The translations under genes and the position numbers were made by a program. Below the pieces are notes generated by a model that saw only the letters and a program-made list of their open reading frames with translations, did not search any database and was not told where the DNA came from. From positions 4,375,573-4,439,572 of the forward strand of contig CP016211.1 of assembly GCA_001931535.1 (NCBI GenBank): a stretch of 64,000 nucleotides of DNA, read 5' to 3'. This document shows positions 44,063 to 60,976 of this stretch, piece after piece; within the stretch, counting starts at the first letter, position 1; each line of letters starts with the position of its first letter. This stretch comes from Minicystis rosea. GTDB lineage: Bacteria; Myxococcota_A; Polyangia; Polyangiales; Polyangiaceae.

Positions 44063-45763
44063 TCAGCCGGTGATCTCGACCGTCGTCTCCACGCGCCCGG
44101 TGCGGGCGGAGCTCGCTTGTACGGTCACGCTCCCCTTCCCCTTCACCACCCATGAAAGGCGCTGACGGACAGGCGCCGATACCGAGCGTGCGAAGGAGGG
44201 TGTCGCCGATCGCTCGCAGCTCCCCCACCCTTCGAGATGGCCCACCACTTGTTCGTTGTCGGTGCCCACGACCGTCACGTCGCCGCCGAGCACGAGGCGC
44301 GCGCGCAGCGGATCGCTCCACGGCAGCTCGCGCGCCGACGAGAGCACGTACGTGGGGAGGAAACCGTCGTTCTGCACGATGGCCGTGATCCGTGAGACGC
44401 CGGAGCCCACGGGCGTGACCGTGACCTCCGCCACGCGCACGCGCGGCGTCAGCGCGGCGATGCGGAAGAACACCTTGGCTTGCCCCTCGCAGAGCGTGGC
44501 AATTTGCTCCTCGGGCGGGTTCCAAACGCCGATGCGCGGATCATAACCGCCGACCTCCACCGGGCCGAGCTGCGGATGCACGAACGGCCGCCAAGCACCC
44601 ACGACGCGACCACCGTTCTTGTCGCGATCCCAGCGGCCGATGGCCTCGATGTCGTCGCGCGTGCGGCGCGAATAGTTGAGGACGAAGGGCCGATGCACCG
44701 TGAGGCCGGCCTGCTTCCAGAAGTCCCACAGCTCGCAGACCATGGCCACGGTCCCGCGCTGCACGTACGCGAAGGTGCTGAGATCGCCGCGCAGCGGTTT
44801 GTCGGGCTCGTAGGTGAACTCCTCGAAGCCGCTCACCATCGGATAACCGGCGTACGCCTCCGCCCACTCGCCGATCTGCAGATACAAGTTGAGATCGCGC
44901 TGATCCATCTTGCGATCGGGCATGTCTCCCGCAGGGCGGATGTAGCAGCCGCCATAACAATGGAGGTTGAGCCACGCGAAGATGTTCGGGTGTTGGGTGG
45001 CAAAGACGGTGACCGCGCGCGACTCGGGCTCGCTGGTGGCGAAGGCGCCCGCGCCGATCTGCTTGGGCTCGGGGGCCCAGTCGTAGGGGAAATTGCGGTT
45101 CATGTCCGTCTCGCTGTTCGACAGGAAGTTGTCGACAGGCACGGTGAAGCCGTCCCAATTCTCGATCATGCCCTCGGGATAGAGGCTGTAATACGGGCCG
45201 GGGTCCTCGAGGCGCCGCGGCAACATGAGGCCGGGAATCGTCGGGCTGCAAACGAACTCGCCCGCGGGATCTTCGCGGCGCATGAGGCGCGCGCGGCCGT
45301 CGCCGTCGACGTCGCCGGCGTTCCAATAGGGCGCGGTGCGGCCGAGCCGGCCGTCACGTGGGTTCGAGCGAACGTATGCGCCCGTGCGGAGGATCTGCTC
45401 CGCGCCATCCGGGCACATGCGCGGAAGCACGTACACGAGGATGTCGTCACGCAAGATGGCGGCGAGGTGCGGGGGCAGATCGTGAATCGGGGCGCCCGAG
45501 GCGTGGGCCGTGATGAGATCCTCCGCTATCGCGAGCGCCACGCACGAGCCGGCGAGCTCGGAGGCATGCATGTTGGCGTCGACCCACGCGGCGGGGCGGG
45601 TGCGATCGGGATCTCGACCGATGGTGAGCAACCAAAGCTCGCGCCCCTCCGGCGAGGTCGCCAGGCTTTCGAGGCGCACGAACGAAGGGTTTGCTTCGGC
45701 CCACGCTCGAACGATGCGCGTGATTTCATCGTAGCTCGGATACTTCGTGCGAAAGAGCGACAT
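44063..45763 (-). CDS. M14 family zinc carboxypeptidase-like protein
   Basis: Zinc-binding context WVDANMHASELAG and NLHCYGG; ATG at 45763. Confidence 0.7.
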   Translation of the reverse strand: MSLFRTKYPSYDEITRIVRAWAEANPSFVRLESLATSPEGRELWLLTIGRDPDRTRPAAWVDANMHASELAGSCVALAIAEDLITAHASGAPIHDLPPHLAAILRDDILVYVLPRMCPDGAEQILRTGAYVRSNPRDGRLGRTAPYWNAGDVDGDGRARLMRREDPAGEFVCSPTIPGLMLPRRLEDPGPYYSLYPEGMIENWDGFTVPVDNFLSNSETDMNRNFPYDWAPEPKQIGAGAFATSEPESRAVTVFATQHPNIFAWLNLHCYGGCYIRPAGDMPDRKMDQRDLNLYLQIGEWAEAYAGYPMVSGFEEFTYEPDKPLRGDLSTFAYVQRGTVAMVCELWDFWKQAGLTVHRPFVLNYSRRTRDDIEAIGRWDRDKNGGRVVGAWRPFVHPQLGPVEVGGYDPRIGVWNPPEEQIATLCEGQAKVFFRIAALTPRVRVAEVTVTPVGSGVSRITAIVQNDGFLPTYVLSSARELPWSDPLRARLVLGGDVTVVGTDNEQVVGHLEGWGSCERSATPSFARSVSAPVRQRLSWVVKGKGSVTVQASSARTGRVETTVEITG

Positions 45764-45899
45764 TCGATTGGGCATGCCGGAACCGGCGCCGCGCCGCAAG
45801 GCTCTCTCGGACGCCGCGAAGAGCCCCGCACGCCGTGCGAGCGCGCTCGAACGACACCGACATTCCTGGTTGTCTCGTTCACGCTGGAGCGTTGCGAGC

Positions 45900-47219
45900 T
45901 CAACGCACGCAGCGCACTCGGTTTCGCGCGCTCACCACGGTCTCGGCCGTCCGTCCGGTGGAGAAGTGCACCGCCCACGCCGCGCCCGGGCCCGCGTTCG
46001 TGCCCGACCAAAACACGTCGATGGCGGAGGTGGGGAAGCTCTCCGGATCGAGCGGTGGATCCATGGTGGTGACTTGCACGAGGCTCTTCAGCTCGTCGGC
46101 GGTAGGCAGTCGATAACCGCCGCCGACGCGCAGACAATGGGAGCGCGCCGATGACCAATCCATCGCCGAGGAAGCCGGGCGTCGCTGCCACGTGAGCTTC
46201 TTCTCGCTATCGACGAGCGTGTCGGCCGAGAGCGTGAAGCGATCCGGAGGCGGTGGCCCGCCGCGCCCGCGGCCGAGACCGAAAGCGATGATCAAGACGA
46301 TGACCGTGACCATGCCAATGGCCACACCTGCCATCGGCGAGAGGGTGCGCTTCACGCCCGGGCTCGCAGGTGTCGCGGCCGAGGGCTGCGCAAAGGGCGC
46401 GAGCGCGGCGGAGAGCGCGGCGACGTTGGCGTAACGCTTGTGCGGGTCTTTCTCCAGACAGCGGAGGATCACCGCTTCGAGCCCAGCTGGGATTTCCGGT
46501 CGATGCTGGCGCGGAGGCAACGGATCGCGCGCCAACACGAACGCGAGCACGTTGCCCACGCTGTCGGCGTGAAAGGGTGTGCGCCCCGTGAGAAGCTCGT
46601 AGAGCGTGACGCCGAGCGACCACACGTCCGTGCGCGCGTCCACGTCACCGGCCGATCGCATCTGCTCGGGAGACATGTATTCGGCGGATCCCATCCCCGT
46701 GTGCGCCTCGGTGATGCGCGTGTCCTCGCTCAGCTTGGAGATGCCGAAATCGAGCACCTTGATCACGGGCTCGCCGGTGCGCTTCTTCGCGAGGAACAGG
46801 TTCGCCGGCTTGACGTCGCGGTGAATGATGCCGAGCGCGTGGGCCTCGGCGATCCCTTGGCACGCCTCGCGGACGTAGCCCACGGCCTCGGCGAGCGCGA
46901 GCTGCCGCCGGCGCACGAGGGCCGCGAGATCGCAGCCGTCGAGCAGCTCCATGACGATGAACGGCGTCCCGTCGTCGAGCGTCTCCACGTCGAGCACGCG
47001 CGCGACGTTCTGGCCCTCCATGCGGCTCGCGGCGCGCGCCTCGCGGAGGAAGCGCTCGATCACCTCGGGCTGCTGCGGCGACCCCGGCTTGAGGAGCTTG
47101 ATGGCCACGCGCTGCTGGAGCGTCAGGTGCGTGGCCGCGTGGACGACCGCCATCCCGCCCTGGCCGAGCTGCTCCTCCAAGCGGTATTTCTGGCGGAGGA
47201 TGTCGCCGGGCGCAGCCAT
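45900..47219 (-). CDS. Ser/Thr protein kinase with TM helix and extracellular DUF1566 (Lcl C-terminal) domain
   Basis: Kinase subdomain motifs GQGGMAVV, VAIKLL, HRDVKPANLF and DFGISK; TM helix AGVAIGMVTVIVLIIAFGL. The C-terminal TWQRRP...WSSARSHC...GGYRLPTADELKSL matches DUF1566. Confidence 0.8.
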   Translation of the reverse strand: MAAPGDILRQKYRLEEQLGQGGMAVVHAATHLTLQQRVAIKLLKPGSPQQPEVIERFLREARAASRMEGQNVARVLDVETLDDGTPFIVMELLDGCDLAALVRRRQLALAEAVGYVREACQGIAEAHALGIIHRDVKPANLFLAKKRTGEPVIKVLDFGISKLSEDTRITEAHTGMGSAEYMSPEQMRSAGDVDARTDVWSLGVTLYELLTGRTPFHADSVGNVLAFVLARDPLPPRQHRPEIPAGLEAVILRCLEKDPHKRYANVAALSAALAPFAQPSAATPASPGVKRTLSPMAGVAIGMVTVIVLIIAFGLGRGRGGPPPPDRFTLSADTLVDSEKKLTWQRRPASSAMDWSSARSHCLRVGGGYRLPTADELKSLVQVTTMDPPLDPESFPTSAIDVFWSGTNAGPGAAWAVHFSTGRTAETVVSARNRVRCVR

Positions 47220-47677
47220 CACGCCCCCTCGGCGCGGACCATCCGCTGGGCTTCGAGAATGAGCGTTCGGCGCGTCGTCGGCATTTGCGATCGCCGACGA
47301 TAGCGGGGCCCGGTCCGGCTGTCTCCGGGCTCGCGCACGCGGCTTCCGGCGGGGCCGTCATACCGCGTCCGGCGGCTCCGGATCCCGACCTACAGCGAAC
47401 GCTCCGTCCCAATGCACGGGGACGTGGAGGGGCGTGGCGAGCGCGCCCGGATGAGCCTGTGATCTCCAGAGGATTCGTCATCCCCTCCCAGGGCCTTCAC
47501 GGGTCTTTCCCTCCCCGGTGATTGGGTATCATCCCGACCCGGGCGACTGGCACGTTCGCCAGCCTTCGTCATCTTGTCGGGACTGACATCCTCGCGACGC
47601 TGTCCGCGTGTTTCATGCGGGAGCGCCCGCGGCGAAATTCAACCTCAGGCGGCACCGCAACAGCGAGAGGTCAACGC

Positions 47678-48174: not shown

Positions 48175-48549
48175 GTGGCCAGCACGAATCGTATCGAGAG
48201 GATCCAGGACGTACTGCGCTCCCTCCGAGCCGTGTCGCCCGACATCATCGGATCGGCGATGGTGAGCACCGACGGCTTCATCATCGCCTCGCTGCTCCCG
48301 GCGGAGGTGGATGAAGAGCTGGTGAGCGGCATGGCCGCGGCGCTGCTCGGCGTGGGCGAGCGCATCGCCGGTGAGCTCATGGGTGGGTCGATGGAGCAGA
48401 CCTATGTGCGAGGTCGCCTCGGCTATGTCATCCTTCATGCGGTCGGGCAGGAGGCGCTCCTCATCGTCCTCACCACGCCGGACGCGAAGCTCGGGCTCGT
48501 GTTCCTGGACGTGAAACGAAGGGTGCAGGAGCTGACGAAGATCCTTTGA
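48175..48549 (+). CDS. Roadblock/LC7 (MglB-like) domain protein
   Basis: 124 aa; GAMVSTDGFIIAS...ALLIVLT pattern; GTG start 20 nt after the V4R stop. Confidence 0.7.
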   Translation: MASTNRIERIQDVLRSLRAVSPDIIGSAMVSTDGFIIASLLPAEVDEELVSGMAAALLGVGERIAGELMGGSMEQTYVRGRLGYVILHAVGQEALLIVLTTPDAKLGLVFLDVKRRVQELTKIL

Positions 48550-48837: not shown

Positions 48838-49422
48838 ATGCACGCCCGCGTCGCATCAGGGGTCTTCCTGGCGCTCGGCTTCGCCGATCTGGCGCTGTTG
48901 AATCTGCTCTTGGCCCCACGGCTCGCGGCCGAGAGGGCGCTCGCCGACAAGGCTTCTCCACAAGAGATCTCCGCGCCGGTCGAGCCGCCGCGAGCTCCCG
49001 CCCAAGCGGTGACGGTGGTCAAACCACCTTCGAGCCCGCCGCCGTCGTCGACGGCGACCATCGCCGCCAATGCCCACGCGGGGCAGAGCGAGGCCGCGCC
49101 CGACGTGCTGTTCAGCCTGGAATCGGAGCGGATCACGAGCTTCGACGCGGCCATGGCGCTGGATCGCGTGGCGCGCGAGCTGCGCGCCGATCCCAAGCGC
49201 CGCGTGCTCCTCCGCGGGCACACCGATCGACTCGGCACCTCCTCGTTCAACGTGGTTCTCAGCCGCCGACGGGCCGAGTCGGTGCGTCACTTTCTCATCG
49301 CGCACGGCGCCCCGGGGGAGCGCATCGACATCGAGTCAGTGGGCGACACCGAGCCGGCCGACCCCGGCGACGGCTTCATGGCATGGGCGAAGAACCGCCG
49401 CGTGCAGGTCATCTGGCGATAA
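48838..49422 (+). CDS. OmpA-family peptidoglycan-binding protein
   Basis: C-terminal OmpA-like box LLRGHTDRLGTSSFNVVLSRRRAESVRHFL; RBS GAGGAGGAG. Confidence 0.75.
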   Translation: MHARVASGVFLALGFADLALLNLLLAPRLAAERALADKASPQEISAPVEPPRAPAQAVTVVKPPSSPPPSSTATIAANAHAGQSEAAPDVLFSLESERITSFDAAMALDRVARELRADPKRRVLLRGHTDRLGTSSFNVVLSRRRAESVRHFLIAHGAPGERIDIESVGDTEPADPGDGFMAWAKNRRVQVIWR

Positions 49423-49434
49423 CGGGACGACGCA

Positions 49435-51024
49435 ATGGATATCGTGCCTTCGATCTGCCTCTCGTCGCTGGCGGGAGCGATCTTCTTTTTCACGGGCGGC
49501 CGGCTCTCGGCGCGCGGGTCGCAATCGACCTCCGGTGGGGAGCTCGCGGCGGAGCGGGAAGCGCGCACGCGCGCCGAAGAAGAAATGGCGCGCTCGGCCA
49601 CGGCGCGCGACGAGGCGACGCGGGCGCGCGACGAAGCCGCCCGCTCACGCGACGAAGCCACACGCGCGCGCGATGAGGCGACGCGGGCGCTCGCGGCGGA
49701 GCAGGGACGCGCCATGGCGCAGGCGCGCGCGATCGAGAACGAGCGCGCCTCGCGAGCGCAGGAGGCACAGCACGCGGCCGCGGAGATCGCGCGGCTCGGT
49801 GAAGAGGGCACGCGCCTCCGCGCGCACGCCGCGAGCCTCGCGCAGCAGATCACGGAGATGCAAGCGCGCCTCGTCGCCGGAGCGAGCGAAGCCCGCGCGC
49901 AGATGAGGTCGGCACCCGACGATGGGCGCGCTGCGGCCGCCGAGAAGCGCGCGACCACGCTCTCGGCCGATCTCGAGAAGGCCCGCGGCGAGCTCGCACG
50001 AGCAATCGACGCGAAGAATCGGCTCGACACCGAGATCACCGATCTGAAAGCCCGGCTCGCGCAGCGCGGGAACGGCGCCGACGAAGCACGTCGCGAGGCC
50101 GAGGCGCAGGCCACGCGACGCGTGGCGGAGATGCAGAAGGAGATCGAGCAAGCGCGGAGCGAACGCGCGGCCACACGCTCGCAGCTCGATCAGACGCGCA
50201 CGCAACTGAACCAGGCGCGCACGGCGCTCACCGCCGCCGAGACGCGCGCCACCGCGGCGGAAGCGCGCGCGACCGCCGCGGAGAAACGCGTGGCCGACGC
50301 GGAGAAGCACGCGGCCGAAGCGGAGAAGCACGCGGCCGACGCGGATCGATTGCGCGCCGAGAACGCTCAGCTGCGCGCCGAAAAGGCCGCGACGCCGAGC
50401 CCGGGAGGCGATCTCGCGGAGCTGCAGCGACGCGGCCTCGAGCTGACCATGAGGACGCGCGTGATCGAGCAGCGCACCGGCGAGCTCGAGCGCGCCAATG
50501 CCGAGAACCACGAGCTGCGCACCCGCGTCGAGGCGCTCACCGAGGCCGCGCGCGAGGCGGACGAGCTGCGCCGCCGCGTGGCCGAGCTCGAGGCGATGGG
50601 CTTCGCCAAGCGCCTCGAAGAGCCGCCGCCGCCGAGCCGTCCGCCGCCCGAAGGCGCGCGCCTCTCCACGGTGCTCGAGCGCGAGCTCGATCGGCTCGTG
50701 AGCCGCGAAGAAGGCTGCCGCATGGCGGTGCTCGCCGACCCGCGCGGGCTCTTGATCGCCGCCTCGGCAGGCGCGTCGTATCCGCACGAGGTCGCGGCCG
50801 CGTCGTCGCTCACCACCACCACCTCCGATCGGCTGCGCGAGCTGATGCCGCTCGGCGCGCCCGCGAGCCTCGAGCTCTACGACGAGAACGGGCTCTGCAT
50901 GCGGACGCGATGGATCCGCTTCGAGAAGGAATGGTTCTTGGTGAGCACGGTGGGCATGGTGGATCCGCAGGACACGGAGGCCGCGGATCTGCGCTCGCGG
51001 CTCGGAGAGCTCATCGGCCGCTGA
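49435..51024 (+). CDS. long coiled-coil protein with C-terminal Roadblock/LC7-like domain
   Basis: About 330 aa of heptad-like Ala/Arg/Glu-rich coiled coil, then RMAVLADPRGLLIAASAG...LVSTVGMVDP. Confidence 0.55.
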   Translation: MDIVPSICLSSLAGAIFFFTGGRLSARGSQSTSGGELAAEREARTRAEEEMARSATARDEATRARDEAARSRDEATRARDEATRALAAEQGRAMAQARAIENERASRAQEAQHAAAEIARLGEEGTRLRAHAASLAQQITEMQARLVAGASEARAQMRSAPDDGRAAAAEKRATTLSADLEKARGELARAIDAKNRLDTEITDLKARLAQRGNGADEARREAEAQATRRVAEMQKEIEQARSERAATRSQLDQTRTQLNQARTALTAAETRATAAEARATAAEKRVADAEKHAAEAEKHAADADRLRAENAQLRAEKAATPSPGGDLAELQRRGLELTMRTRVIEQRTGELERANAENHELRTRVEALTEAAREADELRRRVAELEAMGFAKRLEEPPPPSRPPPEGARLSTVLERELDRLVSREEGCRMAVLADPRGLLIAASAGASYPHEVAAASSLTTTTSDRLRELMPLGAPASLELYDENGLCMRTRWIRFEKEWFLVSTVGMVDPQDTEAADLRSRLGELIGR

Positions 51025-51044
51025 CGGACGATCGCGGGGGGATC

Positions 51045-52151
51045 ATGGATCACGAGCTCGCAACCAACGACGAGACGAAGGGCTGGGACGCGGCCACGGA
51101 TCGCGAGAGCGGATTCACCCCGATCGCGGGGCGCTATCCGGGCAGCGCGGTGCTCGACGAAGCGGGCCTCGGCGTCGTCCTCTTCGATCCCGGCGGGGAG
51201 ATCGCGGCCAGCAACGCCACCGCCGAGGAGCTCCTCGGCCGCCGCGTGGATCGGACGACGCTGCTCCGTCAGGTGCTCGAGCGAGCGCACGCCGGCGGCC
51301 CCAGCGAAGGCGAGCACGACGAGCAGCAGCTCGTCGAGGTCGAGGCCGCCGGCGGCCGGCGCGGCGTCGTTGGCTACCGCGTGGTGCGATCCCCGCGGCT
51401 CGGCACGATCTTCACGCTGCGCGACATCACCGAGCTGGAGCGCACGCGCGCCGAGCGGCGAGCGCTCGAGCGGCTCTCGCAGGTCGGGCGCGCCTGCGCC
51501 ATGGTGGCGCACGAGATCGGCAATCCCCTCGCGGCGCTCAAAGCCACGTTGCAATCGATCGAGCGCGAGGCCGCCGCCGCGGGGCTCGGCGACACCATCG
51601 CCGCCGTGTTCCGCGAGATCGATCGGCTCGACAACATCCTCGGCCAGCTCCTCGGGTTCGTGCGTCACCGCATGCCGCGGCGCGTGCGCACCGATCTCTC
51701 GGTCGTGATCGCGCGCGCCCGCGAGGCGACGCGCGATCGCCTGCAGCACATCTCCTTCCACGCGCCGCGCGGCCCGCTCCCGGACGTCCACTGCGATCCG
51801 GATCAGATGGAGCAGGTCTTCTTGAACCTCTTCCTCAACGCTGCCGAAGCGATGGGCCATCGCGGCGAGATCCGCGTGCGCGCCGGCGCCTCCTCCACGC
51901 ACCTCTGGATCCGCGTGGAGGACTCGGGCCCGGGCGTGCCCGCGGGGCTCCGCGAAAAGGTCTTCGAGTCCTTCTTCACCACCCGGACCACGGGCGTCGG
52001 CCTCGGCCTCCCCGTGTGCCTCCGGATCATGAGCGATCACCACGGATCCATCTCCATCGAAGATCGCGAGGGAGGCAAAGGCGCGAGCGTGCGCCTGTCC
52101 CTGCCCTTCGGTACGGTCACCGGGCGCCGGCCGCGAGAGGAGCGGAAATGA
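51045..52151 (+). CDS. sensor histidine kinase (PAS-HisKA-HATPase_c), cytoplasmic
   Basis: H-box MVAHEIGNPLAAL; N and G boxes NLFLNAAEAM, DSGPGV and GVGLGL. Confidence 0.8.
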   Translation: MDHELATNDETKGWDAATDRESGFTPIAGRYPGSAVLDEAGLGVVLFDPGGEIAASNATAEELLGRRVDRTTLLRQVLERAHAGGPSEGEHDEQQLVEVEAAGGRRGVVGYRVVRSPRLGTIFTLRDITELERTRAERRALERLSQVGRACAMVAHEIGNPLAALKATLQSIEREAAAAGLGDTIAAVFREIDRLDNILGQLLGFVRHRMPRRVRTDLSVVIARAREATRDRLQHISFHAPRGPLPDVHCDPDQMEQVFLNLFLNAAEAMGHRGEIRVRAGASSTHLWIRVEDSGPGVPAGLREKVFESFFTTRTTGVGLGLPVCLRIMSDHHGSISIEDREGGKGASVRLSLPFGTVTGRRPREERK

Positions 52152-53233
52152 CACCACGAAGGCCGAAGGTGCTGATCGTCGACGACGAGGACAACATCGT
52201 CCTCGCGCTGCACCGCGTGCTCTACCAGGACAACGTCCGCTACGACGTGCTCCTGGCGCGGTCGGCCGAGATCGCCCAGCAGATCTTGGAGGACACGCGC
52301 ATCGACGTGCTCGTCACCGACGTGCACCTGCCCGAAAAGAGCGGGATGGATCTCTTGAGCTGGGTGGCGGTGCAGACGCCGAGCACCCGCGTGATCGTGA
52401 TGACCGCGTTCGACGTGCTCCGCATCAAGGATCGCGCGCATGCCTTCGGCTGCCTGCGCCTCGTGCGCAAGCCCTTCGACGTGCACGAGATGCGGGCCGC
52501 CATCATCAGCGCCCTCGGGGTGCGCGACACCTTCAAGGGTCACCTCTCCGAGCTGTCCTGCGTCGACGTGATCCAGATGCTCTGCATTGCGCGCAAGACC
52601 ACGGCGCTCCGGCTGTCCGAGGGCGAGAGCGCCGGTGTCATCCACATCGAGAACGGCGAGATCGTGCACGCGGTGTGGGACGACATCGTCGGCGAAGAGG
52701 CCTTCTTCCGCATGCTCGCGGTGAAGAACGGGCTCTTCAACACCGGGCCTCTGCCGCCGGAGATCGAGCGGACCATCCGCGGCGATTGGCAATATCTCCT
52801 CATCGAAGGCCTCCGCCGGCTCGACGAGGCCGCCGCCGGCATCTCCGAGCCCGAGCGCCCCTCGGTACGCCCCGCACCGCCGCCCGAAACGAGCAACGAG
52901 ACGACCACGCCCTTCTCGCGCCCGCGGCCTGTGGAGCGCGAGAGCACCACGGTCACCCTCGCGCGCTCCACCATGGGATCGATGCTGAGCGGCCCCGCCA
53001 GCACGCCGGCGCCGAGCTCGTCACCACGCAGCCCCGAGGTCACGCGACTCATCGACGAAGGCTTCAGCGCCCTCCGGGACCGCCGCCGTGACGACGCCCG
53101 GCGCGCCTGGGAGGCCGCGCTCCGGCTCGATCCCGGCAATCGCATGATCGAGCTCAACCTCCGCAAATTGGGTGTGGAGGTCCCGCCGCCGCCGCACTCG
53201 GGCCGAGGCTCCGGAGAGCTCGAGACCGGCTGA
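52148..53233 (+). CDS. response regulator: REC domain + DUF4388 domain + Pro-rich tail
   Basis: REC motif KVLIVDDEDNIV...DVLVTDVHLP...VIVMTA; the start ATGA overlaps the histidine-kinase stop; GHLSELSCVDVIQML matches DUF4388. Confidence 0.75.
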   Translation: MTPRRPKVLIVDDEDNIVLALHRVLYQDNVRYDVLLARSAEIAQQILEDTRIDVLVTDVHLPEKSGMDLLSWVAVQTPSTRVIVMTAFDVLRIKDRAHAFGCLRLVRKPFDVHEMRAAIISALGVRDTFKGHLSELSCVDVIQMLCIARKTTALRLSEGESAGVIHIENGEIVHAVWDDIVGEEAFFRMLAVKNGLFNTGPLPPEIERTIRGDWQYLLIEGLRRLDEAAAGISEPERPSVRPAPPPETSNETTTPFSRPRPVERESTTVTLARSTMGSMLSGPASTPAPSSSPRSPEVTRLIDEGFSALRDRRRDDARRAWEAALRLDPGNRMIELNLRKLGVEVPPPPHSGRGSGELETG

Positions 53234-53238
53234 CGCCC

Positions 53239-53473
53239 CGCAAAGCCCTCTCGGCCTCCATCCGGGACATCCCCTCTCCCTCTTCGCAAAGCCATCTCGG
53301 TCTCCATCCCGGACATCGCCTCTCCTCGTTCGCAAAAGCCACCTCGCCCTCCATCCGGGACATCCCCTCTCCCTCTTCGCAAAGCCATCTCGGTCTCCAT
53401 CCGGGACATCTCATCTCCTCGCGCCCAAGCCATCTCGCCATCCACTCCGGACAGCGCCCATCGCGCAAAAGCT
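53239..53473. repeat. ~46-bp tandem repeat, about 5 copies (CGCAAAGCCATCTCGGTCTCCATCCGGGACATCCCCTCTCCCTCTT)
   Basis: Read directly, immediately after the response-regulator stop and ~120 bp upstream of the flavoprotein-membrane fusion gene. Confidence 0.85.
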
Positions 53474-53589: not shown

Positions 53590-56500
53590 ATGGTCGACCT
53601 CGGTGAACGACAGACCCTGGTGGTCATCGGCAATGGCATGACCAGCCACGCGCTCTGCCGCAGGCTCGCGGAGTGCGGGGTCACACGCGGTGAGCTCGAG
53701 GTCGTGGTCTTCGGCGAAGAGCCGCGGCCCGCGTACGATCGCGTGCACCTCACGGATCTCCTCGGCGGCAAGACCGAGGCCGATCTCTCGCTTGCCCCGC
53801 GCTCCTGGTACGAAGATCGCGCCATCACGCTCCACCTCGGCGATCCCGTGGTGGAGATCGATCGCGACGAGTGCCTCGTGCGCTCCGCGTCCGGCGCCAC
53901 CGTGCTCTTCGATCGGCTCGTCTTCGCTACGGGATCACGGCCGTTCATCCCGCCCATCCCGGGCGTCGATCTGCCGGGCGTCTTCGTCTATCGCACCGTC
54001 ACCGATCTCCACGCCATCCTCGCGCATGCGTCGTCCGCCAAGCGCGCCGCGGTGATCGGCGGCGGCCTGCTCGGGTTGGAGGCCGCGCGCGCGGTGCACG
54101 CCCTGGGGCTCGAGGTGCACATCATCGAGGCCCATCCAGGGCTGATGTCGCGCCAACTCGACGCCACGGGCGCGCGCCTCCTCGGCGAGCGCGTCGAGAC
54201 GCTCGGCGTGCGCGTGAAGACGGGCGCGCGCACCGCGCGCATCGACGCCGGCAAGTCCGCGAGCGCCGCCTCCAAGCGGATCCTCCGTTTCGAAGACGGC
54301 TCCACACTCGAGGTCGATCTCGTGATCTTCGCCGCCGGCGTTCGCCCTCGCACCGAGCTCGGCGTCGCCTGCGGGCTCCTCACGGCGCCGAGCGGCGGGC
54401 TCCTCGTCGACGATCGCCTCACCACCTCCGATCCACGCATCTTCGCGGTCGGCGAGTGCGCCACGCATCGAGGCATCACCTATGGCCTGGCCGCGCCCGG
54501 CTATCAGATGGTCGACGTGCTCGTGAACAACATCGGCGGCGGGGACGCCACGTTCACGGGCGCGAGCCAGTCGACCCGCTTGAAGCTGCTCGGCGTGCAC
54601 GTCGCCTCGCTCGGTCGGCCCGATGAAAAGAGCACGCCGGGCGCGACCACGCATACGTACCTCGCCGGGGGCGCCTATCGAAAGCTGGTGATCGCCGATG
54701 GCCACATCATCGGTGCCATCGCGATCGGTGAATGGGAAGATCTGGTGCGCATCGAGGACGCGCTCGCCGAGCCGCGCCGCGTCTCGTTCTGGGATCTGCG
54801 CCGCTTTCGCAGCACGGGCAGCCTCTTTCTCAAATCGGAGTCGCCGCCCGTGCACGAGTGGCCGGCGGAAGCGCTCGTGTGCGGCTGCCTCGGCGTGCGG
54901 CGCGGCGCGCTCAGCGATGCGGAGATCAAAGGCTGCTCCACCGTCGAAGCCATGTCGGCCCACACCGGCGCTGGCACCATGTGCGGCTCCTGCAAACCGC
55001 TCCTCGCGGATTACCTCCGTCGCGAGCGCGCCGATTCTCTCCCTGCCTCTCAGCTCCTGCGGCTCGCCCCGCCGCGCGTGCCGACCTTCGACGGCGTCGC
55101 TCCTTCGAGCAAGGCGCGCCCCGCCTCGGCCGCGCCCCTGCCTTCCAAGCCCACCCCCGCGCCCATCCCTGCGGCGCCCACGCCGCCGAGCACAGCCGGC
55201 GTCGCCGCGCCCAAAGGACGCAAGAGCTCGAATGCACCCTCGCGCAAAGCGCGTCACAACTCGGGAGCTCCGTCGCGCCAGGCAAAGGCCCTATCGAACA
55301 TTCCGCCGCGCCGAACGACGGCCCCTTCGCAAGCTCCGCTTCCTGCACCCAAGGACAAGACCCTTTCCGTTGCTCCCCTGCCCAAAGCGAAGACCAGCTC
55401 GGCGCCTCCGAGCACGGCGCGGTCCGAGCCGACCGCCGCGCCTCGCAATGCACCTTCGCACGCGGCCTCTCCGGCGAGCGTGGCAAAGCCCCCTGCGGTC
55501 GCGGCCCCGCGCGATGCAGAGCCCCTTTCGGTTGCACCTCCGAGCACCGCACGCTCCGAGCCCGCCGCGTCGTCCAACAAGGCTCGTCCCGTTGCCCCAC
55601 CGGCGCCGCGAATCGAGACCGCGGTTGCCCGACGCGAGGCCAAGCCTGACTCCGTAACTCCGCCCAGCACCGCTCGTCCGGGAGCGCCCCTTTGCTCGGC
55701 GCGCCGCGATTCCGCCGCTCCACCGAGCACCGCGCGTCCCGGCTCGGCTGCGCCGCGGTGCGCTTCATCCAACGAGCTTGTCGAGCAACGATGCTCGCTG
55801 CGCGCCGATTCGATTGTTCCTCCGTGCGCCGCCCATGTCGACGAAGTGAATCAACCCCGATCCACCCCCGCGGCGAGTGACGATCGCGGGGAGGACTCGC
55901 CGCCGACGCTGCGCTGCAATGACGAGGGGAATGGAGCCGTGATCGAGCCGGCCGCGCCTGAAGCGCCGACGTCCGATGATGAGGATCCTCTCTCGATTCC
56001 GGCGCTCGCACCGCCGCAGGCCGCGGAGCCCGCAAAGCCGCCCGCGCCTTCCCCGCCTCCACCACCGGACTCGACGCCCGGCGAAGGCCCTCTCTCCGTG
56101 CGCTCGCCGCGTGCCGGACGCGTGCGCCCGCGGCGTCGTCAGGCTTTCGATACGCTGCAGAGCACACCGCCCATCGGCGCGGTCACCGCGCGCGAGGCAG
56201 CGTCGATCCGCCTCGATGCGCCGTCCAAACGCACCCTCACCGCCGCGCTTCCATCCATCGCGGCCCATTTGAGCGCCGCCCGCGCCGAGCGTGCACCGAT
56301 CTCGGTCGCACCCGCGTCCACCATCTCGACACGACAAGAGTCCTCGACGCGGCTGCGACCTTCGATTGCAGAGCAGGGGCCCGTCTCGGAGGCGCAGCGC
56401 GCCAAAGCACCTTCGATCGTTCCACCGCCCAAACCACCTTCGCTCGTTCCACCACCCAAACCACCTTCGATCGTCCCACCGCCCAAACCACCTTCGATCA

Positions 56501-57210
56501 TTCCCCCGCCGCTCAGCGTCCGTGGTCCCGACTCGAATGCACGCGGCGTCGACAGCGCGCCTCCGTCGACGCGACGCGGATCGATGCCACCGCTCCGCCC
56601 CCTCTCCGTGCCTCCGGGGCGGCTCCCTTCGATTCCACCACCGCGCCTCTCGCTCGCGCCCATGGCGCCCGCCCAGCGCGCCGAGGAGCGCCGCCGGCAG
56701 GCGTTGCTCGGATCGGCGGCGAGCGCGTTCGCGGGCGTGTTGATGCTCCTCCTCGCGCCGTCCCTCGGCCCCGCGCGCTCGTTCCTCGGCTTTCATCTGG
56801 ACGCGCTCATCGTCGATCGCATCGTCCGCCAAGCGAGCGGTTATGCCGTGCTCGTCCTCTCGCTCTTGGGGCTCTTCCTTTCGATTCGCAAGCGCGTTCC
56901 GCGCCTCGCTTCCCGCGACATCCCCGGCGCGCGCGCGTTCCATGGAGTCGTCGGCGCGGCGGCGATCGCGTTCCTCTTCCTCCACACCGGCCTGCACCTC
57001 GGCGTGCGCTTGAATCGACTGCTCATGCTCGACTTCCTCGCGCTCTCCGCGCTCGGCGCGGTTGCGGGCCTCTTCGCCGCCGTCATCGGCAACGGTGATC
57101 CGGCCGCTGCGCAGGCGCGGAGGCTCTTCGTCTTCCGCGTGCACGTCATCCTCTTTCTCCCCTTCCCCATCCTGGTCGCCCTGCACGTGCTCGGCGCCTA
57201 CTACTTTTGA
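53590..57210 (+). CDS. NirB-like FAD/NAD(P)H oxidoreductase + BFD-like [2Fe-2S] domain, ~560-aa Pro/Ala-rich disordered linker, C-terminal ferric-reductase-like bis-heme-b transmembrane domain
   Basis: N-terminus VVIGNGMTSHA, AAVIGGGLLGLEAA and AVGECA (class-II pyridine-nucleotide disulfide oxidoreductase fold). BFD box CGCLGVRRGALSDAEIKGCSTVEAMSAHTGAGTMCGSCKPLL. Linker repeats KPPSIVPPP x4 and PPSTARSEP. C-terminal TM helices carry FHGVVGAAAIAFLFLH (H-x13-H) and VHVILFLPFPILVALH (H-x13-H). Confidence 0.75.
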   Translation: MVDLGERQTLVVIGNGMTSHALCRRLAECGVTRGELEVVVFGEEPRPAYDRVHLTDLLGGKTEADLSLAPRSWYEDRAITLHLGDPVVEIDRDECLVRSASGATVLFDRLVFATGSRPFIPPIPGVDLPGVFVYRTVTDLHAILAHASSAKRAAVIGGGLLGLEAARAVHALGLEVHIIEAHPGLMSRQLDATGARLLGERVETLGVRVKTGARTARIDAGKSASAASKRILRFEDGSTLEVDLVIFAAGVRPRTELGVACGLLTAPSGGLLVDDRLTTSDPRIFAVGECATHRGITYGLAAPGYQMVDVLVNNIGGGDATFTGASQSTRLKLLGVHVASLGRPDEKSTPGATTHTYLAGGAYRKLVIADGHIIGAIAIGEWEDLVRIEDALAEPRRVSFWDLRRFRSTGSLFLKSESPPVHEWPAEALVCGCLGVRRGALSDAEIKGCSTVEAMSAHTGAGTMCGSCKPLLADYLRRERADSLPASQLLRLAPPRVPTFDGVAPSSKARPASAAPLPSKPTPAPIPAAPTPPSTAGVAAPKGRKSSNAPSRKARHNSGAPSRQAKALSNIPPRRTTAPSQAPLPAPKDKTLSVAPLPKAKTSSAPPSTARSEPTAAPRNAPSHAASPASVAKPPAVAAPRDAEPLSVAPPSTARSEPAASSNKARPVAPPAPRIETAVARREAKPDSVTPPSTARPGAPLCSARRDSAAPPSTARPGSAAPRCASSNELVEQRCSLRADSIVPPCAAHVDEVNQPRSTPAASDDRGEDSPPTLRCNDEGNGAVIEPAAPEAPTSDDEDPLSIPALAPPQAAEPAKPPAPSPPPPPDSTPGEGPLSVRSPRAGRVRPRRRQAFDTLQSTPPIGAVTAREAASIRLDAPSKRTLTAALPSIAAHLSAARAERAPISVAPASTISTRQESSTRLRPSIAEQGPVSEAQRAKAPSIVPPPKPPSLVPPPKPPSIVPPPKPPSIIPPPLSVRGPDSNARGVDSAPPSTRRGSMPPLRPLSVPPGRLPSIPPPRLSLAPMAPAQRAEERRRQALLGSAASAFAGVLMLLLAPSLGPARSFLGFHLDALIVDRIVRQASGYAVLVLSLLGLFLSIRKRVPRLASRDIPGARAFHGVVGAAAIAFLFLHTGLHLGVRLNRLLMLDFLALSALGAVAGLFAAVIGNGDPAAAQARRLFVFRVHVILFLPFPILVALHVLGAYYF

Positions 57211-57212
57211 TC

Positions 57213-58544
57213 ATGGGCGCACGGCGTACGCTCCTCGTCGGATCGCTGGTCACCGCCGCGCTCGGTGCCTATCACGGCGCACCTCTGGTGCTCGCCGGCG
57301 CCGACAAGCGCGACCATCTTCCGGGCCGCACGTCACGCGGACACGAAGCCTTCGAGTCCGCCTGCGCCACGTGTCACACACCCTTTCGCGGCGTGACCAA
57401 CGATGCTTGCAAACGCTGTCACGAAGAGGGGCTCGCGGCCGCCGAAGACTCGCACCCCGAGAGCAAGTTCACCGATCCACGCAACGCGACCCGCGTCGCC
57501 GCGCTGGATGCGCGCGCCTGCGTGACCTGTCATCGCGAGCACGTGCCCGATCGCACGAACGCAGGCGTCACGCTCCCCGCCGATTTCTGCGGCGCGTGCC
57601 ACCAAGACATCCGCCACGAGCGAGCGAGCCACGCGAGCTTCTCGTTCGAGGGTTGCGCGCGCGCCGGCTGTCATCGCTTCCACGACAACCGTGGTCTCTA
57701 CGAAGGCTTCCTCGCCAAGCACCAGCACGAGCCCGAGAACCTGCCCAAGGCCGTCGTTCTCCTCGTCACGCGCACGGCGGCCGCAGGCAAGGCGCTCACC
57801 GTCGCCGATGCGGACGCACCGCCTGCTTCTCGCACCGAAGCGGTGATGCATGCTTGGTCGACCACCGCGCACGCGCGTGGAGGCGTGGGGTGCAAAGCCT
57901 GTCACGACGTGCGCGACGCCGCGACGGGGACGCGTGCTTGGAAGGATCATCCCGGCACCGCGTCCTGCGAAGGTTGCCACGGCGGCGAGCACGCGAGCTT
58001 CCTCCGCGGCCAGCACGGCGTGCGCACGGCCGTGGGCCTCTCGCCGCTCACACCGGCCATGGCCCGTCTCCCCATGAAACCCGAGGCGCGCGGCCGCACG
58101 CTCGATTGCGAGTCTTGCCACGGCGCGCACGCGTACGACACCGCGCGCGCCGCCGCCGATGCCTGCCTCGGATGCCACGACGATCGCCACAGCCGCGGCT
58201 GGGCGACGACGCGACACGCGCTCGCCTTTCGTCGCGAGCAGAGCGGCGCCGCCGCGCCGGGGACGGGGGTTTCCTGCGCCACCTGTCACTTGCCCCGCGT
58301 GGCGCGACGCGCGCACGGCACCGACGAAGTGAGCGCGAGCCACGACGTGAGCGCGGCGCTCCGCCCGCGCGACAAGATGCTGCGGGCCGTGTGCGTGCGT
58401 TGTCACGGCCTCGGCTTCGCCATCGACGCGCTCGCCGACGGCGATCTCGTGCAACGCAACTTCAACGGCCGCCCAGCGGTGCACGTCGAGAGCCTGGAGA
58501 TGGTCGAGCGCCGCGCGCACGAAGATCAGGGAGGTGGGGGATGA
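57213..58544 (+). CDS. multiheme c-type cytochrome (10 CxxCH + 1 CX4CH)
   Basis: Heme motifs CATCH, CKRCH, CVTCH, CGACH, CARAGCH, CKACH, CEGCH, CESCH, CLGCH, CATCH and CVRCH. The N-terminal TM/signal is LLVGSLVTAALGA. ATG at 57213 follows the upstream stop. Confidence 0.85.
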   Translation: MGARRTLLVGSLVTAALGAYHGAPLVLAGADKRDHLPGRTSRGHEAFESACATCHTPFRGVTNDACKRCHEEGLAAAEDSHPESKFTDPRNATRVAALDARACVTCHREHVPDRTNAGVTLPADFCGACHQDIRHERASHASFSFEGCARAGCHRFHDNRGLYEGFLAKHQHEPENLPKAVVLLVTRTAAAGKALTVADADAPPASRTEAVMHAWSTTAHARGGVGCKACHDVRDAATGTRAWKDHPGTASCEGCHGGEHASFLRGQHGVRTAVGLSPLTPAMARLPMKPEARGRTLDCESCHGAHAYDTARAAADACLGCHDDRHSRGWATTRHALAFRREQSGAAAPGTGVSCATCHLPRVARRAHGTDEVSASHDVSAALRPRDKMLRAVCVRCHGLGFAIDALADGDLVQRNFNGRPAVHVESLEMVERRAHEDQGGGG

Positions 58545-59116
58545 CCATGACGACGCGTTTCCTGTCGAAGCTCCTCCCGGCCGCGGCGCTCGTCGCCGCC
58601 GCCGGATGCGGTAAATCCGAGCCCCATGGAGGCATCGCCCCGCAGACGATGGCCGACGGCCTCTATGCGGTCATGTCCGCCGATCGCGCCGTCTACACGC
58701 GTGAGGTCGTGGCCCGTTTGCAAGACGACGAGGGCGTGATCAAAGCCAGCGAGCACTTCAAGGACGACAAGGCCCTTCCGCTGCCCGCCCAGATGTTCCG
58801 CATGGGCGCGGAGACGGCGCGCAAACAATCTCCCGGCTTCACCTATGCGCTGCTCTCGCAATGGCCCATCAACAAACAGAACCTGCCTCGCACCGAGATC
58901 GAAAAGACCGGCCTCCGCCGCGTGGCCGAGACCGGCAACCCCTTTTACGGCGAGGAGACGCTGGCCGGCACGCGCTACTTCACCGCCGTCTACGCGGATC
59001 GCGCGGTGTCGACGGCGTGCGCCAACTGCCACAACGGCCATCGCGACAGCCCGAGGCACGATTTCAAGCAAGGCGACACGTTGGGTGGCGTGGTGATCCG
59101 CATCGCGCTCAAGTGA
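58541..59116 (+). CDS. DUF3365-like monoheme lipoprotein
   Basis: ATGA overlap with the cytochrome stop; lipobox LVAAAGCG; single CANCH near the C-terminus. Confidence 0.6.
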   Translation: MTMTTRFLSKLLPAAALVAAAGCGKSEPHGGIAPQTMADGLYAVMSADRAVYTREVVARLQDDEGVIKASEHFKDDKALPLPAQMFRMGAETARKQSPGFTYALLSQWPINKQNLPRTEIEKTGLRRVAETGNPFYGEETLAGTRYFTAVYADRAVSTACANCHNGHRDSPRHDFKQGDTLGGVVIRIALK

Positions 59117-59191
59117 CGCCTTTTCCCTGATTGCGCGCGCCTCCGCACGCGCCCCTTTCAATGCGCCGTCCGCTGTCGCATCCTCGCGGCG

Positions 59192-60976
59192 ATGCAGGCC
59201 CGGTCAAAGCGTTTGCTCGCCGCCGTCGAGCGCTTCGGGAGCGGCCCTCGGGGGCTCCTTCGTCTCGTCGTCTTGGTCTTGGTGCTGCTCGGCTCGGTGT
59301 GCTTCCAGGGCTTGCAGGTCGATGACCTCTGGCACCGCGGGCTCTTCATCAAGGACCCTTTCTGGGCCATCGGCCCCAAACATTGGTGGCAGCTCTTCAC
59401 CTTCTTCGACGGCAAACCCGAGCTCGTGCAGCACGCGCGCGATCTCGGCATGGTCCCTTGGTGGGCCGACGATCACGTGCGCCTCGCTTTTCTGCGCCCG
59501 CTCTCGTGCCTGACACACGTCCTCGATTACGCGCTCTGGCCGGGCCTCCCGGGCGTCATGCACCTGCACTCGCTCGCTTGGTACGTGGCGCTCGTGCTCG
59601 TCGCGGCGAGCCTGTATCGGCGCGTCCTCCCGCCCGCCGCGGCCGCGCTCGCCGCGCTCTTCTACGCCGTCGATCACAACCACGGCGGCGTCGCCGGCTG
59701 GATCGCCAACCGCAACGCCATCGTCGCGGCCACCTTCGGCCTCGCCGCGGTCGTCTTCCAAGATCGCGCGAGCCGCGGTGAAGCGCGCGCCCGCTGGCTC
59801 GGCGCGCTCTGCTTCGGCCTCGGCCTCCTCTCCGGCGAAAGCGCGCTGGGCGCCGCGGGCTACCTCGCCGCCCACGCGCTCACCCTCGATCGCCGCCCGC
59901 TCCGCGAGCGCCTGCGCGATCTCGCGCCGCACGCCGCCGTGCTCGTGACATGGATGGCCGCTTATCGCATCTTCCATTATGGAGCCTCCGGTTCGGGGAT
60001 GTACCTCGATCCCGGCCGAGCCCCGCTGCGCGTCCTCGCCCACGTCCCGGAATACGCTTCGCTCCTCATCGCCTCCGAGTGGGGATCCATCGCTCCCGAG
60101 ACGGAGATCATCATGCCTCCCGCGGCGCGCATCGGCCTCGTCGCGATGGCCTTCGTCATCGTCCTCGCCGGCCTCGCCGTCCTCTCCCGCAGCCTGCGAA
60201 CGCGCGCCTCCAGCCGCTTTTTGCTGCTCGGCGCGCTGCTCGCCATCCTCCCGTGCTGCGCGACCATGCCGGCCACACGCCTCCTGTTGCTCCCAGGCGT
60301 CGGCCTGATTGGCCTGCTCGCCGAGATCGTCACCGACTTCGTCTCCGGCGAGCATTGGAATCGAGGGCCGATTCGCGTCGCCGCCGGCTATTTCACCTAT
60401 TGGGCCGGCCTCGGCCACCTCGTGCTCTCACCGCTCCTGCTCGGTCCGATGGCGTGGCAGATGGTCATTCTGCAGGACAACCTCATGCAGTTCGCGCAGA
60501 GCTTCCCGCCGGACGACACCGCTCTTCCCCGACAACGCGTCATCGCCGTCGGCGTCCCCGATCCTGCCTTTTCCGGCTACATTCCTCTGCTCCGCCACGA
60601 CCGCGCGTGGACGCTCCCGCGCGCCTCGCTCGGCCTCACCAACGGCACGCGCCCCAGCGAGGTTCGCCGCATCGCCGACGACGTCGTCGAGGTCCACGCC
60701 CCCGGCGGCTTCTACCAATGGGGCACCGACTTCCTGGAGCGTGATCCCGAAGTGCCTTTGCCGGTGGGCACCCGTCATCGCCTCTCCGACGTGACCATCG
60801 AAGTCACGCACGCCACGGAAAAAGGCATCCCGGACGTCGCCCGTTTGACCTTCGACGCCGCCGCGACCGACGCCCGCTATCGTTGGGTCACCTGGAGCGA
60901 CCGCAAATACGTCCCCTTCCCCCTACCCGCCGTGGGCTCGTCCACGACGGTGCCCGCGCAAAAGCCGGGGACGTGA
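59192..60976 (+). CDS. polytopic integral membrane protein (hypothetical; GT-C/DUF-like)
   Basis: About 10 predicted TM segments plus a C-terminal soluble ~150 aa; no motif recognised. Confidence 0.5.
   Translation: MQARSKRLLAAVERFGSGPRGLLRLVVLVLVLLGSVCFQGLQVDDLWHRGLFIKDPFWAIGPKHWWQLFTFFDGKPELVQHARDLGMVPWWADDHVRLAFLRPLSCLTHVLDYALWPGLPGVMHLHSLAWYVALVLVAASLYRRVLPPAAAALAALFYAVDHNHGGVAGWIANRNAIVAATFGLAAVVFQDRASRGEARARWLGALCFGLGLLSGESALGAAGYLAAHALTLDRRPLRERLRDLAPHAAVLVTWMAAYRIFHYGASGSGMYLDPGRAPLRVLAHVPEYASLLIASEWGSIAPETEIIMPPAARIGLVAMAFVIVLAGLAVLSRSLRTRASSRFLLLGALLAILPCCATMPATRLLLLPGVGLIGLLAEIVTDFVSGEHWNRGPIRVAAGYFTYWAGLGHLVLSPLLLGPMAWQMVILQDNLMQFAQSFPPDDTALPRQRVIAVGVPDPAFSGYIPLLRHDRAWTLPRASLGLTNGTRPSEVRRIADDVVEVHAPGGFYQWGTDFLERDPEVPLPVGTRHRLSDVTIEVTHATEKGIPDVARLTFDAAATDARYRWVTWSDRKYVPFPLPAVGSSTTVPAQKPGT

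Follow-up and report, generated by a model that had tools for sequence, protein, structure and literature searches.

A 64,000-nucleotide stretch of the genome of Minicystis rosea (contig CP016211.1, positions 4,375,573 to 4,439,572; hereafter, the window) carries three consecutive genes, G1, G2 and G3, which probably encode a module delivering electrons of cytoplasmic reduced nicotinamide adenine dinucleotide (phosphate), NAD(P)H, to periplasmic haems of the c type; gene neighbourhoods in other lineages hint at nitrogen-oxide chemistry as its task. G1 is a fusion of a flavo-iron-sulfur dehydrogenase with a membrane domain predicted to bind two haems b, G2 is an 11-haem cytochrome c, and G3 is a monohaem lipoprotein of the Cache-haem (Tll0287-like/DUF3365) family. 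An earlier reading of the window, made from its sequence alone (the original prediction), had proposed a transmembrane electron-export conduit consisting of these genes and a fourth one, G4, and regulated by a histidine kinase and a response regulator encoded upstream. The coordinates are collected in Table 1.

The N-terminal part of G1 resembles the corresponding part of NirB, the large subunit of assimilatory nitrite reductase. Pfam recognizes Pyr_redox_2 (residues 10–293, E = 4e-53), a Rubredoxin_C-type domain (residues 328–392) and a BFD-like [2Fe-2S] domain (Fer2_BFD, residues 429–477, E = 1.5e-9). The NCBIfam model of NirB (TIGR02374) covers G1 at model positions 1–472 of 794 only, and the score (461.7 bits, cut-off 578.35) stays under the cut-off because the sirohaem half is missing; Pfam finds neither NIR_SIR nor NIR_SIR_ferr domains in G1. 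Therefore, G1 contains the electron-input half of NirB and is not a nitrite reductase. The solved proteins closest in sequence to this module are ferredoxin and rubredoxin reductases and NADH oxidases. The product name of G1 in GenBank (APR78435.1), "Nitrite reductase [NAD(P)H] large subunit protein", is misleading, since the sirohaem half is absent; fragments of the G1 family bear a similar JGI label, "nitrite reductase (NADH) large subunit".

The last 171 residues of G1 comprise five hydrophobic segments according to hydropathy and five long helices according to the AlphaFold model. Two pairs of histidines are located there, H1118-x13-H1132 on the third transmembrane helix (TM3) and H1185-x13-H1199 on TM5. 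Seven columns are invariant in a 60-sequence alignment (27–63% identity to the window G1), four of these being the paired histidines, and both H-x13-H pairs are kept in nearly all of the best 150 cluster representatives. The pattern of two His pairs with x13 spacing is also found in cytochrome b of the bc1 complex. The cytoplasmic loop between TM2 and TM3 contains an invariant RKR (residues 1100–1102), which, together with RAEERRR ahead of TM1, provides positive-inside charges fitting the topology proposed here: N-terminus inside, C-terminus outside, and one histidine of each pair by each face of the membrane.

The AlphaFold2 model of the membrane domain built with the 60-sequence alignment is confident (predicted local distance difference test score, pLDDT, 92.2; predicted template modelling score, pTM, 0.87); it was used instead of a run with 12 close sequences, which was poor (pLDDT 69.7). 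Comparison of folds gave 10.6 for the de novo di-haem bundle 4D2, 10.2 for E. coli cytochrome b561 (CybB), 9.1 for both eukaryotic b561 and the NOX5 membrane domain (5o0t), 8.8 for hydrogenase cytochrome b (HyaC), 8.7 for Dcytb and 8.5 for cytochrome b6. A fold like that of di-haem cytochromes b is thus supported by the model, in which the predicted di-haem site would have H1118/H1185 as ligands of the haem nearer the cytoplasm and H1132/H1199 as ligands of the one nearer the periplasm. A Foldseek search of the model against the PDB returned no match below E = 0.25, and a profile of the 60 sequences returned none among all PDB sequences.

Four Pfam families of haem b membrane proteins, namely, DUF4405, Ni_hydr_CYTB, DUF4079 and Ferric_reduct, give matches to the G1 family, each below its cut-off. 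For the window G1 itself these are Ferric_reduct (E = 0.79; 10.2 bits, cut-off 28), Ni_hydr_CYTB (E = 0.87) and DUF4405 (E = 4.5). Among the 60 family members, weak matches were obtained for DUF4405 (PF14358) in 42 (best E = 4e-4), Ni_hydr_CYTB (PF01292) in 32 (best E = 1e-3), DUF4079 in 13 and Ferric_reduct (PF01794) in 12 (best E = 2.5e-4). The recurrent matches to DUF4405, for which haem b binding has been shown experimentally (PMC11334425), and to Ni_hydr_CYTB suggest kinship at the level of superfamily only. In our reading, the domain is a distinct, unmodelled branch of two-haem membrane cytochromes, which would operate in the manner of a ferric-reductase domain. Stand-alone membrane proteins of about 290 residues (P0200–P0205), also without a Pfam family, share the motifs RKR...W..H-x13-HTG and H-x13-H...YY and carry a cytoplasmic insert of about 110 residues ahead of the last helix; they are wider, unmodelled relatives of the G1 membrane domain.

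G2 has 10 CxxCH motifs and one CxxxxCH motif, i.e., 11 sites of haem attachment, and matches Cytochrom_c3_2 and Cytochrome_C7 in Pfam; a hydrophobic segment, judged by eye, is present at its N-terminus. All 11 motifs and exactly 11 other histidines are invariant in 67 orthologues, which is the number expected of a wire with bis-His ligation throughout. With 11 invariant candidates for distal ligands, G2 would have no obvious open catalytic haem, and a catalytic role would thus fall to G3. Similarity of G2 to MtrC-domain and DmsE-family proteins is weak. An enzyme of the NrfA or HAO type was also considered and ruled out, since the similarity to NrfA and octahaem enzymes is local and weak (about E = 1e-5) and a distal His candidate is available at all 11 haems.

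G3 belongs to the Tll0287-like/DUF3365 family (PF11845; 59.6 bits, cut-off 24.1). Its only cysteines are those of the lipobox AAGC (Cys23) and of a single CANCH motif. CANCH is invariant across 52 orthologues, M85 is kept in 98% of them, and many polar residues are invariant as well. M85 is a candidate distal haem ligand. The conservation of G3 is very strong and looks more like that of a binding or catalytic pocket than of a plain carrier. A lipobox-like motif is present in 23 of the 52 orthologues, the window G3 and its closest relatives being lipoproteins. None of the orthologues has a cysteine beyond the lipobox and CxxCH, so that Cys/His ligation of the haem is not expected in this subfamily. 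A recent reclassification places the family among Cache domains, with haem c bound covalently: stand-alone members with Cys/His ligation act as redox proteins, and members lacking the axial Cys bind nitric oxide (NO) tightly (bioRxiv 10.64898/2026.02.01.703092). The GenBank product name of G3 (APR78437.1), "Adenylate cyclase", is misleading, as only the Cache-haem domain is present.

G1, G2 and G3 are translationally coupled. The stop codon of G1 and the ATG of G2 are separated by 2 nt, and G2 and G3 overlap in ATGA with GGAGG ahead of it. A scan for promoters and terminators around this operon gave nothing exceeding the background.

The same arrangement is widespread. When 1.84 billion cluster representatives (clusters at 50% identity) were searched exhaustively with a profile, 603 relatives reached E ≤ 1e-3, of which 503 had E ≤ 1e-10; the family thus comprises at least 603 clusters, which come from soil, sediment and ocean metagenomes, and its carriers include aerobic marine and soil lineages. 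Further, 87 related loci were collected and searched by tblastn with the window proteins, each count below being referred to the loci with room for the gene in question. The NirB-type module lies 5' of the membrane domain in 61 of 61 loci (the reading frame was not checked), a G2 homologue directly follows the fusion in 72 of 73, and a G3 homologue follows G2 in 58 of 59. The sole exception for G2 is an error-prone nanopore contig, where the G2 match is merely displaced. Recurrence in 87 related loci means that these features are not due to chance, and by gene order the conserved unit is G1-G2-G3. Chance joining of two genes in the G1 open reading frame is ruled out by the fusion being kept in all 61 loci; moreover, in Polyangium and Byssovorax the annotation treats each long-linker homologue of G1 as one protein.

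Most of the parts named in the original prediction are confirmed by these results: the N-terminal NirB-type NAD(P)H/flavin adenine dinucleotide (FAD) module with its BFD [2Fe-2S] domain (Pfam, TIGR02374), the cytochrome with about 11 haems behind it, the DUF3365 monohaem lipoprotein after G2, and co-conservation of the three genes. Its assignment of the membrane domain to the ferric-reductase family is not supported. The spacing of the invariant H-x13-H pairs and their places on helices 3 and 5 of a confident model would fit such a domain; membership in Ferric_reduct is not demonstrated, and there are five helices in place of six.

The following route could be proposed for the electrons. NAD(P)H would reduce FAD in the NirB-type module of G1, and FAD would reduce the BFD [2Fe-2S] cluster. 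The cluster would dock at the cytoplasmic face of the five-helix domain and deliver electrons to the inner haem b (H1118/H1185), from which they would pass to the outer haem b (H1132/H1199) and then along the periplasmic G2 with its 11 bis-His haems. The endpoint would be G3, either its Cache-haem or a small molecule held by it. Compared with NirB, a transmembrane wire and periplasmic haem proteins would thus stand in for the catalytic sirohaem half, with G3 as the reactive or ligand-binding end and NO or other nitrogen oxides as the most likely chemistry. Outward flow of electrons from NAD(P)H is downhill and assisted by the membrane potential. Such flow dissipates energy; therefore, respiration is less plausible than a reductive service such as detoxification, repair or sensing. 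Domain content, invariance of the haem ligands, the fold, and co-conservation and coupling of the three genes are shown by the analysis; occupancy by cofactors, direction of flow, docking and the substrate are inferred.

Hints of the chemistry come from the neighbours of the cassette in other lineages. Neighbourhoods were counted by clustering the open reading frames of the 87 loci, 48 of which extend at least 1.3 kb beyond G3. Within 1.6 kb 3' of G3, a co-directional single-domain globin (PF00042) is encoded in 28 of these 48 loci and a co-directional truncated globin (PF01152) in 7, i.e., a globin of either kind in 35; a co-directional monohaem cytochrome c (PF13442) occurs at the same distance in 24. 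Genes for nitrate-type ABC transporters or ANTAR response regulators are found anywhere in the locus in 13 of the 48. The neighbouring single-domain globin is closest to the globin domain of the NO-inducible flavohaemoprotein Hmp, and the ATPase of the neighbouring ABC transporter clears the cut-off of TIGR01184. In Bradyrhizobium, a unit for NO detoxification combines the flavoprotein Flp with a single-domain globin and with genes of nitrate assimilation (PMC4724949). The gene neighbours therefore hint at chemistry of NO or other nitrogen oxides, and not at respiration of metals. Other neighbours, depending on the lineage, are a Ser/Thr kinase with a PilZ protein or an Rrf2 regulator.

Most non-myxobacterial cassettes are extended by the monohaem cytochrome c and the cytoplasmic globin with short gaps, for example at 6515–6934 in locus L010, 10514–11313 in L024 and 7312–8134 in L012. 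In locus L003 (1976–4636), a short-form cassette stands beside a divergently transcribed Rrf2 regulator (RirA/NsrR-like, below the cut-offs), a CuA-type subunit II and SCO1. The haem-copper oxidase subunit I of this locus is very divergent (68.6 bits, cut-off 670), and the oxidase may be one of the NO-reductase-like families.

Several points weigh against the proposed electron route and its link to nitrogen oxides. No globin, monohaem cytochrome c or nitrate-transport gene is encoded in the Minicystis window, so that the connection with nitrogen oxides is borrowed from other lineages and is circumstantial. Neither Pfam nor NCBIfam gives a significant match to the G1 membrane domain, and its haem b is predicted from conservation and fold. 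Docking of the iron-sulfur domain to the membrane domain across a disordered tether of 551 residues is assumed. Finally, the ligand count suggests that G2 lacks an open catalytic haem, which would shift catalysis to G3.

Other explanations of the same genes could be considered. A bolder version of the proposed scheme, in which the cassette is a widespread NAD(P)H-powered periplasmic reductase of NO or nitrogen oxides with G3 as the catalytic subunit, and G1 also re-reduces the co-operonic cytoplasmic globin so that both compartments are guarded, appears rather unlikely as a whole. Alternatively, the di-haem b domain could exchange electrons with the quinone pool, like CybB, NarI, FdnI and HyaC; quinol would then feed G2 and G3, and the flavoprotein would be an NDH-2-like input or a regulator. 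This is improbable: the flavoprotein is fused to the membrane domain in all 61 loci, usually with a gap of about 43 residues, which argues for direct hand-over, and no quinone-site motif came up, though no search was aimed at one. A similarly low probability is given to maintenance of a sensor, with G3 as a periplasmic NO or redox haem sensor which G1 and G2 keep ferrous, and the output directed to the adjoining signalling genes. Cache-haem domains without the axial Cys, which G3 also lacks, behave as NO sensors (bioRxiv 10.64898/2026.02.01.703092), and a histidine kinase with a regulator, a Ser/Thr kinase, a PilZ protein or an Rrf2 regulator adjoins the cassette, depending on the lineage; but G3 is a stand-alone lipoprotein without a transmitter domain, the kinase in the window has no membrane segment, and an 11-haem wire would be a heavy investment for holding one haem reduced.

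It is still less probable that G1 is mainly a cytoplasmic flavoprotein reducing a globin NO dioxygenase or another partner, as in the Flp/Bjgb pair, with the membrane domain mostly an anchor. A globin is co-operonic in 35 of the 48 loci, its single-domain form resembles the globin domain of Hmp, which needs a reductase, and Flp provides a precedent (PMC4724949); this explanation leaves the four invariant membrane histidines and the near-absolute linkage with G2 and G3 unaccounted for, and the globin is absent from Minicystis and from 10 of the 48 loci with room. It is highly improbable that the cassette serves extracellular electron transfer or dissimilatory reduction of metals in the Mtr or porin-cytochrome style. 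The multihaem cytochrome with its weak similarity to MtrC-domain and DmsE-family proteins is compatible with it, but NAD(P)H-driven outward flow would be wasteful of energy, aerobic marine and soil lineages are among the carriers, and no outer-membrane beta-barrel or surface cytochrome recurs among the neighbours in the 87 loci. With no conserved outer-membrane component, export would reach the periplasm and would not amount to extracellular transfer; the extracytoplasmic or extracellular export of the original prediction is accordingly borne out by the evidence as far as the periplasm only. The OmpA-family protein encoded upstream has a peptidoglycan-binding domain only. As for an ordinary assimilatory nitrite reductase large subunit, which the database name and the strong match to the N-terminal half of NirB would favour, its probability is practically nil: G1 has neither NIR_SIR nor NIR_SIR_ferr, TIGR02374 is matched at 1–472 of 794 under the cut-off, and the C-terminus is a membrane domain. 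A canonical nitrite reductase is thus ruled out for G1, as is the complete canonical nitrite/sulfite reductase against which the original prediction had cautioned.

The preferred reading, i.e., transfer from NAD(P)H through the G1 membrane domain to the haems of G2 and G3, could be compared with several known systems. NOX/FRE enzymes (ferric reductase domain superfamily, PMC3591440) likewise combine an NAD(P)H-flavin dehydrogenase and a membrane domain with outward electron flow in one polypeptide, and have His pairs 13 apart on the third and fifth helices with one predicted haem per face. The dehydrogenase is C-terminal and FNR-like in NOX/FRE, whereas in G1 it is N-terminal, of the NirB type with two dinucleotide-binding domains, and supplied with a [2Fe-2S] cluster; the membrane domain has five helices in place of six, a sixth not being needed with the dehydrogenase at the N-terminus, and electrons would be accepted by a multihaem cytochrome c where NOX/FRE enzymes use O2 or Fe(III). 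Among the partners catalogued for ferric reductase domains in bacterial fusions are FNR-like, flavin mononucleotide, ferredoxin, Rieske and DOMON ones and no NirB-type one (PMC3591440). MsrQ (YedZ) with Fre and MsrP, DUF4405 proteins, PepSY-like FoxB and FezC are also small haem b membrane proteins delivering cytoplasmic or quinol electrons to a periplasmic partner (PMC11334425, PMC12525009). Those systems draw on a reductase encoded separately or on the quinone pool, and serve molybdoenzymes, flavinylated proteins or siderophores; G1 includes its reductase in the same polypeptide and has c-type haem proteins as partners.

NirB shares with G1 the homologous N-terminal module of FAD/NAD(P)H and BFD [2Fe-2S] domains (461.7 bits) and differs in its sirohaem/[4Fe-4S] half, which is replaced in G1 by the linker and the membrane cytochrome domain. 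The Flp-Bjgb system of Bradyrhizobium (PMC4724949) is comparable by gene context: an NAD(P)H flavoprotein, a single-domain globin and nitrate genes occur together, as around short-form G1 homologues, but Flp is a soluble protein without partners in the membrane or of the c-type haem kind, and Minicystis has no globin. Stand-alone Cache-haem proteins (Tll0287 and a Pseudomonas putida protein; bioRxiv 10.64898/2026.02.01.703092) belong to the same Pfam family as G3 and have a single CxxCH; the characterized ones use Cys/His ligation, in contrast to the G3 subfamily, which has no candidate axial Cys and is always encoded behind an 11-haem cytochrome. Porin-cytochrome (Mtr) conduits differ in their outer-membrane beta-barrel and surface cytochrome, both missing among the recurrent neighbours of G1-G2-G3.

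NOX/FRE enzymes and MsrQ with Fre already exemplify the principle of passing electrons from NAD(P)H through flavin and transmembrane haems to an outside acceptor; the parts list described here is new and widespread. No description of the fusion or of the cassette was found in the literature that could be searched, and a paper on Idiomarina merely lists a DUF3365 family member. To our knowledge, bacterial systems carrying NAD(P)H electrons directly through the inner membrane are few, the known ones being NOX-like enzymes and MsrQ with Fre. With G1-G2-G3 there would be a third design, rich in members and distinguished by another kind of dehydrogenase, a relay through an iron-sulfur cluster and an acceptor with many haems. 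Systematic mis-annotation of G1 as nitrite reductase large subunit and of G3 as adenylate cyclase would be corrected. Stand-alone Cache-haem proteins, about half of a large family, would gain a concrete redox partner and a testable role, and, if the link with globins is true, the reductase that has long been sought for single-domain globins of bacteria would have a candidate in G1.

Table 1. Positions in the window of G1–G3, the parts of G1 and the neighbouring genes
Feature	Position	Strand	Basis or remark
G1, flavo-iron-sulfur-cytochrome b fusion	53590..57210	+	Uninterrupted open reading frame, ATG to TGA, 1206 residues
G1 cytoplasmic dehydrogenase module	53617..55020	+	Pfam, NCBIfam
G1 linker, residues 485–1035 (551 residues), low-complexity	55042..56694	+	Composition, motifs
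G1 membrane domain, residues 1036–1206, predicted 5 TM helices	56695..57207	+	Hydropathy, AlphaFold model
G2, secreted or anchored 11-haem cytochrome c	57213..58544	+	Translation, Pfam
G3, Cache-haem (Tll0287-like/DUF3365) monohaem c lipoprotein	58541..59116	+	Pfam PF11845
G4, multi-pass membrane protein, 594 residues	59192..60976	+	Hydropathy
Histidine kinase (HisKA + HATPase_c)	50910..52151	+	Pfam
Response regulator (REC + DUF4388/PatA_N + TPR)	52148..53233	+	Pfam
Roadblock/LC7 gene	48175–48549		Upstream block
OmpA-domain gene	48838–49422		Upstream block
529-residue coiled-coil protein, one N-terminal TM segment	49435–51024		Upstream block

The linker of G1 is rich in Pro (21.6%), Ala (17.6%), Ser (12.5%) and Arg (9.6%) and contains five PPST[AR]R motifs and three PPPKPPS[IL][IV] repeats; a 27-nt unit is repeated in tandem four times at 56402–56510. 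The GC content of its three codon positions is flat (0.72/0.71/0.72), with no enrichment at the third, where the folded G1 domains have 0.87–0.88 and the flanking domains and neighbouring genes 0.81–0.91. The original prediction had taken the giant linker as a defining trait, which it is not: full-length members of the G1 family are mostly of 636–690 residues (640–690 in most homologues), and the membrane domain begins about 15–50 residues past the BFD domain, the median gap being 43 residues. Long linkers occur in the closest relatives, namely, in Polyangium sp. y55x31 (1256 residues in total), metagenome-assembled genomes (MAGs) of Byssovorax (1038), a deltaproteobacterial MAG (868) and a Rhodanobacteraceae group (774–795). 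Long-linker homologues have in common the motif RRxS.PPLRP.SVPP about 25 residues ahead of TM1. The PPST[AR]R motifs, the PPPKPPS[IL][IV] repeats and the RRxS.PPLRP.SVPP motif are possible phosphorylation or docking sites, and the role of the linker could possibly include regulation by the abundant myxobacterial Ser/Thr kinases.

G4, separated from G3 by 75 nt, had been taken for the fourth gene of the cassette. It is ruled out as a member of the system, having no homologue in any of the 87 related loci. It is 100% identical to M. rosea A7982_03785 and has no match in Pfam, NCBIfam or the PDB. Its family consists of membrane proteins from myxobacteria, each about 595 residues long; one protein of this family is named "glycosyltransferase RgtA/B/C/D-like".

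Control by the histidine kinase and response regulator, as proposed originally, does not extend to the family as a whole. The kinase is cytoplasmic with no TM segment, and its homologues adjoin the cassette only in the myxobacterial loci L001, L002 and L007, the same three that share synteny of the regulator. The regulator, whose start overlaps the kinase stop codon in ATGA, has no DNA-binding domain. The Roadblock, OmpA-domain, coiled-coil, kinase and regulator genes stand in identical order upstream in L001, L002 and L007 and make up a conserved myxobacterial signalling block, all five of which are missing from the Polyangium locus.

The 356-nt gap between the regulator and G1 is filled for the most part by a tandem repeat of 46 nt (53239–53450; 4.6 copies, 83% matches). 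Its core, CTCCATCCGGGACATC, is present in four copies within the gap and has no further copy in the 64 kb (0.08 expected); the repeat could be a regulatory array or a local expansion. Farther upstream, a Ser/Thr protein kinase with a C-terminal Lcl_C domain is encoded on the minus strand (45900–47222) next to a gene for an M14 carboxypeptidase (44063–45799, minus strand).

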